Under the pieces are notes generated by a model, which saw only the letters and a list, made by a program, of their open reading frames with translations, had not been told where the DNA came from and did not search any database. A DNA stretch of 62,263 nt from Kiritimatiellia bacterium. Its GTDB lineage: Bacteria > Verrucomicrobiota > Kiritimatiellia > RFP12 > JAAYLN01. The stretch spans positions 1-62,263 of the forward strand of contig JAFWPM010000069.1 of NCBI GenBank assembly GCA_017509565.1, in the 5' to 3' direction. This document shows, in pieces, positions 20,481 to 24,323 of this stretch. A program made the translations under genes and the position numbers. Each line of letters starts with the position of its first letter. Within the stretch, counting starts at the first letter, position 1.

Positions 20481-20517
20481 GCGCAGTTCGCCGTCCGGCG
20501 CGCGTGGCGCGCCGCGA
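20481..20517 (+). repeat. 37-bp direct repeat, copy 1
   Basis: gcgcagttcgccgtccggcgcgcgtggcgcgccgcga; one mismatch to 23939-23975. Confidence 0.9.
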
Positions 20518-20540
20518 TGGCACCAAGGATTTTTACCAAC

Positions 20541-20575
20541 CACTAGTCACTAGCCACTAGCCACTGACCACTAAT
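20541..20575. repeat. Heptamer tandem repeat (CACTAGC-like x5)
   Basis: cactagt cactagc cactagc cactgac cactaat. Confidence 0.85.
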
Positions 20576-20783
20576 TTCAACGCTGCAAAGCGGTCGCCGC
20601 CTGAAACTTAGGAACTTTCAACGAATGACGACACCTTGCAGGGGTAGCGTGTATAGGCGCTTGCCTCTCCTTGTGTTTCATTCAGGTTTCCTAAGACCTC
20701 AGACGGGATACGATGGGAGGCCTTCTTTTTGACTCCTTCCTTCATGTCGGACCCGAGCGGCGGAAACACGAAGGAAGGAACCA

Positions 20784-21032
20784 ATGAAAGCCAGCCATAT
20801 CCAAAAGAGTTCACTTTGGACGCTTGCCGGCGTCGCATGGACTGTGACGATTCTGTGCTCCATCTCGGCCTTCGCACAGGACAAGTTCTTGATCGAACCT
20901 CCGCGACAAGCAGTGCGAGAGGCTGTTCAGATGGAGACTGCTCCGGGGCGGGTGCCGGATGCGTTGCGCGAACTGGAACGCGCCGGAAAGATTCCCACCG
21001 AACAGCTATATGCACCCGAAGGCGGTTTATGA
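20784..21032 (+). pseudogene. N-terminal stub of a secreted protein (signal peptide), out of frame with the downstream toxin-like tip
   Basis: RBS aaggaagga; signal peptide ending 'SAFA|QDK'; stops after 82 aa while overlapping the next frame. Confidence 0.55.
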
Positions 21033-21378
21033 ACTGCGGTCAAAGCCTGTTACAGGCGGGCATGGGCATCAGGCGACATACGACGCCCAAGGCTATATTA
21101 TCACTGAAACCATCAAGGCCGGAACGGCGGACTTCGCTTTCCCTGCAACTTACATAAAACTTAAAAGGCTGGAAAAACATCGTGAAAAGGATGTCAAACC
21201 ATACATTCGCGCCTTGCAACTTGACGGAAATCCAGTGCATCCTATTGACAGTTCTGGGAATATATCCACCTTCTGGACTCGCAACCTCACTCTCCCGCCG
21301 CTTCGCGTAGGGCCTTTTACACAGCAGTATCTTCAACGCCGTCCTACAACCCCGACAGGAGTCTTGAGTATACCATGA
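21010..21378 (+). CDS. Orphan AMOP-like domain, putative polymorphic toxin C-terminal tip
   Basis: 'HPKA..ELRS...GHQATYDAQG..I...AGTADF...H...DVKPY...YLQRRPT' follows the AMOP motif order. Confidence 0.55.
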   Translation: MHPKAVYELRSKPVTGGHGHQATYDAQGYIITETIKAGTADFAFPATYIKLKRLEKHREKDVKPYIRALQLDGNPVHPIDSSGNISTFWTRNLTLPPLRVGPFTQQYLQRRPTTPTGVLSIP

Positions 21379-22100
21379 AATCCTTAATTGCAATTGCAAC
21401 GCTAACGTTAACCGTAGCATCGCTTGTCGCCGACACGCTGCAAATAGGCGCGTTCACCTTGCCGTATCGTTTTGAGGACACAAACATCACGGACATTGTA
21501 AGATATGTCGTGACGAACGATGTCATTGCCTACAAGTCCACCACAACTTCGTTCACGCCGCCATTCGTTGAAGAAAACGGCAATGTCACCGTTGACAGCG
21601 AAAACACGCCGGGCACGACCTTGTATCTGCCACCGGTTTTCGAGAATGGAATAGAGTTCCGCATTGAAAACGGCCAGACCAACTGCGTCATCAAACAGTC
21701 GCTGACCGATGTGGCAAAGACCATTGAGGGCGAGTTGCCGACACGAACGAACCTTGTCGCTGCGGCGCAAGGCTTCATTGATAATTTTTGCTCTGGGGGG
21801 ACAACAAACTTGACAATCTCGGAGCAGCGCGCCTTAATGAGAACCGTGTCCGGCGACAATTTGCTGACCATGGGGCCCGACATACCGGATGAAGATGCCC
21901 TTGAGGCACAGGAGGAAATGCGCCAACATTTCTCTTTTTTGCCGATATGCATCCTGGATACACGCTATGTCAATGTCGGGACAAACATTGTCCTATTGGC
22001 GTATGTCAGAACGGACAGGCCACAAAACCCATCATACGCCAGAAGCATTGGTGCGCTACCCCTTGTATTCTTTGATGGCTACTGGAGCTTCCTGTATTAG
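21375..22100 (+). CDS. Secreted/periplasmic hypothetical protein, putative immunity protein
   Basis: Signal peptide 'MKSLIAIATLTLTVASLVA'; ATGA overlap with the upstream tip. Confidence 0.6.
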   Translation: MKSLIAIATLTLTVASLVADTLQIGAFTLPYRFEDTNITDIVRYVVTNDVIAYKSTTTSFTPPFVEENGNVTVDSENTPGTTLYLPPVFENGIEFRIENGQTNCVIKQSLTDVAKTIEGELPTRTNLVAAAQGFIDNFCSGGTTNLTISEQRALMRTVSGDNLLTMGPDIPDEDALEAQEEMRQHFSFLPICILDTRYVNVGTNIVLLAYVRTDRPQNPSYARSIGALPLVFFDGYWSFLY

Positions 22101-22129: not shown

Positions 22130-22220
22130 GGTTGCATCACTCATAGGAGCATTTTCACCGACCACTAACGAACTTTAACCACAACTGAACCTTTTACGCA
22201 TCTGCGCAACGCGACGTTCT

Positions 22221-22883
22221 ATGGCAACCACCGAATCGATTATCCCACATGACATAAAAAACAAGTTTGAGTTCCACAATTTTGGGCATGCGCTGGAAAT
22301 TCTACCGCAAGCATACCCCGAAGAGTGGGATGATCTCATTTCAGCCCTTCGCGGTCTTGAGATTCCATTAGCGGATATCAAGGCCGCAGGTGGCAATGAA
22401 AGTGCCATACCTAAGCGTTTTGACGACTTGCTTTATCCAAGAGGGTGGAGCGAAATCCGAATTACTGGCGACTTGCTATTGAAAATGTTTCCCCGAAAAG
22501 CCATTCAGCGCAGGGGAACATTCGCTTCGCAGCCATTCAGCGAGAAAATAATTGAAGGTTACATTGATGGTCACAACATAGATTTTATCAAGGGGAAGGT
22601 CGCCTTTGATCTGGAATGGAACAGCAAGGATCAGACCTTCGACAGAGATCTTCTTGCCATGCGCACATATTTTGATTGTGGTCTTATTGATGTCGGAGTC
22701 ATTGTTACGAGATCCGAAGAGTTGAATGACCTGTTTCGCACTCTTGGAATAATGGCCAAATATGGCGCGTCAACGACATGGATGGGCAAACTGCTCTATA
22801 GGCTGAAATCGCGCCGTAATGGTGGGTGCCCAATTTTGGCTGTAGGCATAAAGATTCCGTGCATAACGGGAGTGGTGCAATGA
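22221..22883 (+). CDS. BglII/BstYI-family restriction endonuclease
   Basis: 'GGNES', 'IDFIKGKVAFDLEWNSKDQTFDRDL', 'DVGVIVTR', 'GGCPILAVG'. Confidence 0.8.
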   Translation: MATTESIIPHDIKNKFEFHNFGHALEILPQAYPEEWDDLISALRGLEIPLADIKAAGGNESAIPKRFDDLLYPRGWSEIRITGDLLLKMFPRKAIQRRGTFASQPFSEKIIEGYIDGHNIDFIKGKVAFDLEWNSKDQTFDRDLLAMRTYFDCGLIDVGVIVTRSEELNDLFRTLGIMAKYGASTTWMGKLLYRLKSRRNGGCPILAVGIKIPCITGVVQ

Positions 22884-23671
22884 GCAATCTCGCGGATACA
22901 ATTTCAGATCTTCGTGATTTCGCGGCAGGACGCAAATTTAAGACGATTTACGCCGACCCCCCATGGCAGTTTAAAAACCGCACAGGCAAGGTGGCTCCTG
23001 AACATAGACGGCTTTTACGTTACGAAACGATGCCTTTCGATGACATAAAGGCTCTTCCTGTTTGCGATATTGCCGATGAAAAAAGCCATCTATACCTATG
23101 GATCCCGAATGCGTTGCTCCCTGAAGGGTTAGAAATAATGGCGTCATGGGGCTTTACGTATAAGACAAACATAGTTTGGGAAAAGGTGCGCCAAGATGGA
23201 ATGCCTGATGGACGTGGCGTTGGCTTCTATTTTCGCAACGTGACGGAACTTCTTCTTTTCGGGGTCCGCGGAGAAGGAAACAGAACTTTGCAGCCAGGGC
23301 GCTCGCAAGTTAATCTTATCCGCGCGGTAAAGCGCGAGCATAGCCGGAAGCCAGACGAAATTGTTCCAGTAATAGAGGCATGTTCGCCGGGGCCATATCT
23401 AGAACTTTTCGCACGCGGGGATCGTCCAGGATGGGCCATGTGGGGCAATCAGGCCTCATCGGATTATGAACCGACATGGGCAACATACGCAAATCATACT
23501 GTTGCGACAGCTAAAAAAGAAGATTTCAAGTACACGACTGCCGTTGGTTGCAACAAAATGGCTCGTCAGATGTTGCTTGCACTTGAATCTGACAATAATG
23601 TTGGCGGACGCGATGTTGCCTTGCGGGAGTCTGGCACTTTGAACTTGACGAAATGCACGCCGACCACATAA
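22880..23671 (+). CDS. MT-A70 family adenine methyltransferase
   Basis: 'IYADPPW', 'HLYLW', 'GFYFRNVTELLLFG', 'REHSRKPDE', 'LELFAR...W..WGNQ'. Confidence 0.9.
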   Translation: MSNLADTISDLRDFAAGRKFKTIYADPPWQFKNRTGKVAPEHRRLLRYETMPFDDIKALPVCDIADEKSHLYLWIPNALLPEGLEIMASWGFTYKTNIVWEKVRQDGMPDGRGVGFYFRNVTELLLFGVRGEGNRTLQPGRSQVNLIRAVKREHSRKPDEIVPVIEACSPGPYLELFARGDRPGWAMWGNQASSDYEPTWATYANHTVATAKKEDFKYTTAVGCNKMARQMLLALESDNNVGGRDVALRESGTLNLTKCTPTT

Positions 23672-23938: not shown

Positions 23939-23975
23939 GCGCAGTTCGCAGTCCGGCGCGCGTGGCGCGCCGCGA
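23939..23975 (+). repeat. 37-bp direct repeat, copy 2
   Basis: gcgcagttcgcagtccggcgcgcgtggcgcgccgcga. Confidence 0.9.
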
Positions 23976-24052: not shown

Positions 24053-24280
24053 ATATGTGTCCTTGCCAATCCCTTATTTGCCACAGCAGTTGTTTTCGCA
24101 TTACGTGCCAAAAGTGTCAAGGCGATTTTTGGCACGAAATTTGTTTTTTGGCTATTTGGTGCCAAGGCAACCGGTGAAAATTCTGGCACGAAGGTGATGT
24201 TTCCAGACCCTTGAGGGGCTGGACCGACGTGACGGACGAAAGCGACCTCGACGCGGCTGGATGGCGCGCCGTGGCGCGCG

Positions 24281-24323
24281 GTTGAAAGGTTGAAAAGGTG
24301 AAAGGTTGAAAGGTTGAAAAGTT
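24281..24323. repeat. Octamer tandem repeat (GTTGAAAG x5)
   Basis: gttgaaag gttgaaaa ggtgaaag gttgaaag gttgaaaa. Confidence 0.9.

Follow-up and report, generated by a model that had tools for sequence, protein, structure and literature searches.

Introduction

Bacterial polymorphic toxin systems such as Rhs and CdiA-CT/CdiI include orphan cassettes of tip and immunity gene, and effectors that act in the periplasm are paired with immunity proteins carrying signal peptides, as in the type VI amidase-immunity pairs and in colicin M with Cmi (Cmi structure 2xgl). On the animal side, the C-terminal domain of teneurins is an extracellular domain thought to derive from a bacterial toxin tip, and AMOP is a domain found in MUC4, SUSD2 and the isthmins (Isthmin-1/2). 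In this article, I describe a locus in a stretch of 62,263 nucleotides (nt) from a Kiritimatiellia bacterium (assembly GCA_017509565.1, contig JAFWPM010000069.1), hereafter the window, where a short stub with a signal-peptide-like start overlaps the open reading frame (ORF) of an AMOP-like domain, called ORF2 or the tip, which is followed by ORF3, the gene of a signal-peptide protein. The evidence supports the tip as a distant, cysteine-free homolog of AMOP at the superfamily level, and the locus is probably an orphan cassette of a polymorphic toxin-immunity system of a Kiritimatiellae type, lying in an islet of low guanine-plus-cytosine (GC) content together with a BglII-like restriction-modification pair; the support for this toxin-immunity reading is contextual.

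Several properties of the locus and its relatives recall Rhs and CdiA-CT/CdiI, since the putative effector sits at the C-terminus of a conserved carrier, alternative tips exist, the cognate gene follows immediately downstream, truncated tips and extra partner genes form arrays behind it, and the distribution is patchy. Unlike in those systems, the carriers (17 scanned) show no Rhs/YD shell, PAAR, VgrG, two-partner-secretion or LXG module, and the break in the orphan tips falls inside the effector domain and not at a pre-toxin motif. There is also a likeness to the teneurin case, in that a bacterial domain of the C-terminal toxin type has, among secreted animal proteins, a distant counterpart that is stabilised by cysteines.

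The first AMOP structure, reported in 2025, was described as a distinct fold with likeness to streptavidin only, and the domain possesses eight conserved cysteines and four strictly conserved disulfides; the available portion of that report treats the binding partners and mechanism as unknown, regards the animal domain as one for adhesion or binding, and describes neither a partner gene nor an enzymatic role for it (PMC12000326). The bacterial tip differs in having none of these disulfides, in possessing invariant polar residues of its own, and in lying at protein C-termini beside a partner gene, whereas no such gene is described for animal AMOP in that portion of the report (PMC12000326).

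A tip family related to AMOP

An exhaustive phmmer search with the tip returned 330 cluster representatives with E<=1e-3, of which 169 had E<=1e-10, and 197 stored proteins of 75-1978 amino acids (aa) have a median of 5 residues behind the domain, which almost always forms the extreme C-terminus. What stands in front of it varies, from calcium-binding TSP3/Binary_toxB repeats to Glucodextran_B with Ig-like domains, TPR, transglutaminase and fn3, and signal peptides or N-terminal membrane helices are legible in the carrier sequences. The nearest relatives of the tip (65-82% identity) are proteins of ~765 aa from metagenome-assembled genomes labelled Kiritimatiellae; P0014, a 765-aa protein, matches ORF2 through its last 136 aa. 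Nine loci come from species-representative genomes, five of them labelled Kiritimatiellae, Kiritimatiellia or Kiritimatiellaeota and the other four Lentisphaerales, Acidobacteria, Candidatus Anammoxibacter and Pelotomaculum (one each). Over 78 sequences, and in ORF2 numbering, D78, D89 and R128 are invariant, these being the polar residues that set the tip apart from animal AMOP, while the near-invariant ones include H19, R27, Q38, Y41, D58, H74, N91 and Y124; the relatives possess at most one or two cysteines, at positions that are not equivalent to those of AMOP.

ORF2 itself (20959-21378, 139 aa) can be read as HPKA (residues 19-22), RS (27-28), GHQATYDAQG (36-45), AGT (54-56), HREKDVKP (74-81) and YLQRRPT (124-130). 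Pfam as a whole had nothing for ORF2; its AMOP family, PF03782, gave no match to the ORF at E<=10, its hidden Markov model (HMM) gave none in the tip's own genome at the same limit, and among five tip-bearing genomes it found matches in one (two tips, E 0.096), the single-sequence route being too weak. Among the tip's relatives, PF03782 was the only Pfam family to match more than one sequence, 6 of 47 and then 11 of 78 (best E 0.001), and all 11 matches lay below the gathering cut-off of 25 bits, outside the family as formally defined. When profiles of the tip family were searched against 177,635 PDB sequences, human Isthmin-1 (9c6t) came top with E values of 1.2e-4 and 3.7e-4, the next matches having 1.2 and 0.11, and the alignment is colinear over ~110 residues, with RS, Y, LIT, AGT and HxxxDVxP in the same order and the bacterial A-T in the position of the AMOP cysteine pair.

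Furthermore, the AlphaFold model of ORF2 (predicted local distance difference test score, pLDDT, 88.9) has the half beta-barrel core and the middle helical 'thumb' of the AMOP fold; Foldseek against the PDB placed 9c6t_B, the AMOP domain of Isthmin-1, first (E 3.1e-3, probability 1.00) with all others at E>0.6; VIA-align superposed model residues 1-135 on residues 333-444 of ISM1; and the best ESM Atlas feature match (0.93) was a cluster in which 20% of the members carry AMOP. The eight AMOP cysteines are absent, there being none in residues 4-139, the homologous part of ORF2. Four different methods agree, namely Pfam on the relatives, the PDB profile search, the comparison of structures and the ESM Atlas, and distant homology to AMOP at the superfamily level is supported, outside the Pfam family as it is defined.

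Some observations on the family stand beside these. One divergent subgroup of tips (G030:C33:3820-4227, G189:C53:4086-4643 and G019:C3:239501-239881; E 1e-23 to 1e-30, profile positions ~60-189) occurs in ORFs that reach 1742 aa; the genomes concerned yielded no gene of the ORF3 family, and the subgroup may have a different partner. In P0005, a 196-aa protein from a contig of 1678 nt, a tip fragment lies behind a TIR domain of the CAP12/Pycsar type (PF10137, E 2.6e-15), an arrangement that may be a genuine fusion or else a chimera of the assembly. A conserved gene for ~250-290 aa stands directly upstream of carriers (L069 4491-5270, L070 781-1239 and L009 1566-2450); its product has no Pfam match, with nothing recurrent or above cut-off in Pfam/NCBIfam, has a hydrophobic stretch and then R or K at its end, and may belong to an export or anchoring route.

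A fast-evolving partner gene

ORF3 starts inside an ATGA (21375-21378) that overlaps the end of ORF2, and its product begins with MK and a hydrophobic N-terminus; a fold search returned only generic NTF2-like matches, over residues 118-241. Twenty-one proteins encoded downstream of the tip at nine loci, ORF3 included, form one family (BLASTP links 19 of them, jackhmmer all 21), every member of which begins with MK and then a hydrophobic stretch, and neither Pfam nor NCBIfam gave it an assignment. Of 33 non-redundant complete tips, the 32 with at least 400 nt of downstream sequence were counted in HMM scans of fetched loci, and 29 have an ORF3-family gene directly downstream, at -3 to +156 nt. 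Among 201 genomes of the order, the tip occurs in 30 (20 of 45 genera) and the partner in 28, with both in 22, the tip only in 8 and the partner only in 6, and partner genes outnumber tips by 11 to 7 in G108 and again in G080. Tips have a median pairwise identity of 48.9% and partners one of 26.1%, and for 115 of 351 partner pairs no alignment over 100 aa could be made. A predicted complex of ORF2 residues 4-139 with ORF3 residues 21-241 scored 0.02 against a mark of 0.32, which speaks neither for nor against binding.

Alternative tips and orphan arrays

Searching the order with P0014 recovered full-length relatives and, in addition, ORFs of 815-854 aa that share residues ~64-330 only and end in a metzincin-like region (HExxGHxxGL), which the tip HMM misses (best E 0.086). 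These sister carriers are followed by one to three tandem signal-peptide proteins of ~250 aa that belong to a different family, its six sequences being interrelated by BLASTP at E<=1e-5 and scored by the ORF3 HMM with a best E of 0.044; this second family, too, has no Pfam match and nothing recurrent or above cut-off in Pfam/NCBIfam. A single carrier that comes with two classes of tip and two families of partner is what marks out polymorphic effector-immunity systems.

Orphan cassettes of tip and partner lie downstream of the main gene at L003, L005, L009, L039 and L045, the order at L003 being a gene for 706 aa, three partners, a 133-aa tip, a partner, a 112-aa tip and two more partners. The orphan tips of G108, G081 and G073 start at positions 100-112 of the 239-position profile, and the tip of the window starts at 102; given this common start, the segment around YLHHDAxYEMRS...GHGHQATYD looks like a recombination boundary, and the orphan tips are probably recombination cassettes by which the last ~130 residues would be swapped. 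The hallmarks of polymorphic toxins are thus found together, these being a putative effector at the extreme C-terminus, alternative tips, a tip-specific downstream gene and orphan cassettes.

An earlier sequence-only reading of the window had proposed, from the order of its motifs, a cysteine-free AMOP-like tip of a polymorphic toxin acting in the periplasm, coupled to a gene for a candidate periplasmic immunity protein. Much of this has stood up: the motif order is legible in ORF2 and the size of the family puts it far beyond chance, the tip is cysteine-free, PF03782 is the sole recurrent family, Isthmin-1 the sole significant PDB sequence and 9c6t the sole structural match, the relatives do sit at the C-termini of proteins of varied architecture, and the coupled extracytoplasmic partner gene recurs behind 29 of the 32 tips and in arrays of orphan tips and partners. 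The enzymatic origin of AMOP at which that reading hinted is a conjecture.

As an observation on the metzincin-tipped sisters, which have the same TSP3 scaffold, they can be seen at L068 1027-4250, L069 162-4487 and L070 1243-5999, and their partners end in a tail of the '...RFDWPATNTVPEP' type.

The window copy, its junction and its islet

ORF2 spans only profile positions 102-230 of 239, is without a signal peptide of its own, and is in the +1 frame relative to the stub. Even a profile search of the genome finds a single tip and a single partner gene, and there is no full-length carrier. Since the tip lacks ~100 N-terminal positions and an export signal, and the signal peptide of the stub lies in another frame, the tip is most likely inactive or silent, while ORF3 probably works as an orphan immunity gene that would still protect against the toxins of relatives. 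Residues 33-55 of ORF2 (21055-21123) come close to the threshold of the YD-repeat model TIGR01643 (14.2 bits, cut-off 15.8), which may be likeness at the level of a motif only and is probably the reason that the relative P0006 bears the name 'YD repeat-containing protein' in one source.

The stub ORF (20784-21032, 82 aa) has a hydrophobic, signal-peptide-like N-terminus and, past 20972, runs through foreign sequence to its stop at 21032, its reading frame overlapping that of ORF2 by 74 nt. Its sole relative in a search of 5.8 billion proteins is P0198, a 407-aa protein with 89% identity over residues 1-63 and unrelated thereafter, which carries an LpoB domain (PF13036, residues 310-400, E 2.4e-6, 28 bits against a cut-off of 22.3 bits) and no tip. 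By tblastn, residues 1-63 of P0198 align to 20784-20972 and residues 630-765 of P0014 to 20968-21375. With the stub matching the start of one protein and the tip the end of another, 5 nt in common and different frames, what had looked like a collapsed gene is a junction joining pieces of two different genes, and the tip of the window a standard orphan module fused to a foreign gene fragment. The remainder of the LpoB-type gene was not found in the assembly (89.6% complete), where there are only paralogs of 25-33% identity.

The sequence-only reading had placed the ORFs correctly, with the stub at 20784-21032, the tip out of frame with it and a signal-peptide ORF in ATGA overlap; its further claim, that a single toxin gene had collapsed by deletion of its middle, has to be given up, because the stub belongs to the unrelated LpoB-domain gene and the homology switches within 5 nt. 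The search that it had called for, of full-length proteins with both stub and tip, came back empty, with a stub-like N-terminus in 0 of 197 stored tip-bearing proteins (best E 5.7) and no match to the stub among 200 other genomes of the order.

GC content is ~0.65 outside and 0.47-0.56 within 20.5-24.5 kb, and the low-GC islet of ~3.4 kb is flanked by a 37-nt direct repeat, one copy on each side, of which there are just two copies genome-wide (<=3 mismatches; assembly of 3.2 Mb in 314 contigs). Five ORFs lie inside it, every one on the + strand (Table 1). The islet looks like the footprint of an insertion, as judged from its GC content and direct repeats only; a search for the empty site, with the left flank against 13 genomes of the same family, gave a best match of 67% identity (G002).

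Table 1. Features of the locus, with positions counted from the first nucleotide of the window
Feature	Positions	Strand	Details
37-nt direct repeat, left copy	20481-20517	none	97% identical to the right copy, 3458 nt apart
Stub, first 63 codons of a gene for an LpoB-domain protein	20784-20972	+	56/63 residues identical to P0198 residues 1-63
Junction, 5-nt overlap of the end of LpoB-gene homology and the start of tip homology	20968-20972	+	tblastn; frames differ by +1
Orphan, N-terminally truncated AMOP-like putative toxin tip	20968-21378	+	82% identical to the last 136 aa of P0014
ORF3, intact immunity candidate	21375-22100	+	241 aa; N-terminal signal peptide; NTF2-like C-terminal half
BglII-like restriction endonuclease gene	22221-22883	+	PF09195, E 9.4e-46
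MT-A70-family DNA methyltransferase gene	22826-23671	+	PF05063, E 4.2e-30
37-nt direct repeat, right copy	23939-23975	none	pairs with the left copy

Within the islet, the endonuclease and methyltransferase genes (22221-23671) overlap by 58 nt and form a complete-looking type II restriction-modification pair that adjoins the cassette. A short repeat rich in CCACTAG/GACCACTAA occupies 20528-20591, with a related stretch at 22165-22217, just 3' of ORF3, and the two may flank the cassette of tip and partner; the summed contig depth at the repeat is 340-400, against ~6.7 alongside, and public contigs break there. Past the right-hand repeat, in low-GC sequence, 24280-24321 holds four overlapping copies of an 18-nt unit at 8-nt spacing, of the GGTTGAAA type.

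Proposed mechanism and alternative explanations

If the toxin-immunity reading is right, the complete system would consist of an exported protein of ~700-800 aa, with a Sec signal or N-terminal membrane helices first, a middle of calcium-binding TSP3 repeats and a conserved region, and a C-terminal effector domain of ~230 aa, the cysteine-free distant AMOP homolog. The product of the next gene would be a signal-peptide protein of ~250 aa that evolves fast, is NTF2-like in its C-terminal half, and would bind and neutralise the effector outside the cytoplasm; the signal peptide of the partner points to effector action there, and neutralisation there would place the effector's target in the cell envelope. 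Downstream, spare copies of the partner gene would then accumulate together with truncated orphan tips, and the window would hold such a truncated orphan, fused out of frame to 63 codons of an LpoB gene, with an intact ORF3 remaining.

Several results weigh against this reading. In Pfam scans of 17 long carriers, no Rhs/YD, PAAR, VgrG, CdiA or LXG delivery module rose above threshold, the sole trace of one being the sub-threshold YD-repeat match on ORF2, though delivery may follow an undescribed route; three of the 32 tips are without a downstream partner (L004, where the partner is upstream, L008, and a fragment in L033), and the 29 that have one were counted with a partner HMM trained on part of the loci; and in 8 of the 30 genomes with a tip the partner gene was not found, in a sample where related genomes are not independent. 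The AMOP-like domain could instead be the variable end of a surface enzyme or adhesin, with the partner as its chaperone, inhibitor or ligand and the orphan tips as silent cassettes for surface variation, which I consider unlikely. Carriers that look anchored or surface-exposed (TSP3, Ig-like, fn3, TPR), that possess no known module for toxin delivery and whose repeat region weakly resembles the gliding and cohesion proteins CglD and MtsD (NCBIfam, far below cut-off) would suit it, as would the view of animal AMOP as an adhesion or binding domain (PMC12000326). It accounts less well for a metzincin-like tip that has its own, unrelated downstream family on the same scaffold, which fits effector and immunity better, and for partners that diverge much faster than the tips, that outnumber them (in G108 and G080), and that were found in six genomes without a tip.

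The likeness to AMOP could also reflect convergence or a common small fold rather than common descent, an explanation I regard as decidedly improbable when four different methods point to AMOP and to nothing else, when five motifs follow one another in order through ~110 colinear residues, and when VIA-align spans practically the whole ORF2 model. As for the stub, that it should be the toxin gene's own signal peptide, left by a gene that lost its middle, might be thought from the fact that stub and tip adjoin on one strand and that short proteins of signal peptide plus tip exist elsewhere, for example the 196-aa P0003; it is very improbable, and already contradicted, with the stub 89% identical to the start of an LpoB-domain protein that has no tip, with no such start among the 197 tip proteins or match in the 200 other genomes, and with homology and frame changing over within 5 nt. 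The one idea to which I would give even less credence is that a +1 frameshift yields a single exported protein from stub and tip, or that the frame offset is a sequencing error, although the ORFs overlap by 74 nt and the stub would provide the signal peptide absent from the tip. Public contigs of 3267 nt and 867 nt, from runs among which the source sample may be (three of the four seem to be one data set), have an identical junction and frames with no letters gained or lost, and since they bridge the overlap without an indel, the offset is not a quirk of this assembly; moreover, P0001 (122 aa, 99% identical, 1374-nt contig) begins at an internal methionine rather than upstream, and a fused product would still miss the first ~100 positions of the domain.

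Novelty and meaning

Literature searches on AMOP with polymorphic toxins, bacteria or horizontal gene transfer, judged partly by title or the start of the abstract, found no bacterial AMOP relatives, and searches on toxin-immunity systems of Kiritimatiellae found nothing; as far as the literature searched shows, this AMOP-like bacterial family is new. Being large (330 clusters) and cysteine-free, with invariant polar residues and a coupled partner, it makes the function of the AMOP fold tractable. For Kiritimatiellae and other little-studied phyla it further defines a toxin-immunity-like system whose carrier is new and which has two classes of tip and two families of partner; Pfam and NCBIfam cover none of these. 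Furthermore, the copy in the window, a decayed orphan, shows that putative immunity genes persist after their toxins are gone and are able to move together with restriction-modification genes.

A more tentative idea, which I hold open without expecting it, is that animal AMOP and a bacterial extracytoplasmic effector, an enzyme or a binder of small ligands, share ancestry, with the common H...D pair of HxxxDVxP as a relic of the active or ligand site. If such shared ancestry were true, AMOP would be a further case of an animal extracellular domain recruited from a bacterial toxin tip, and the bacterial enzyme with its inhibitor-like partner could offer a way into the activities of Isthmin, MUC4 and SUSD2 that lack an explanation.

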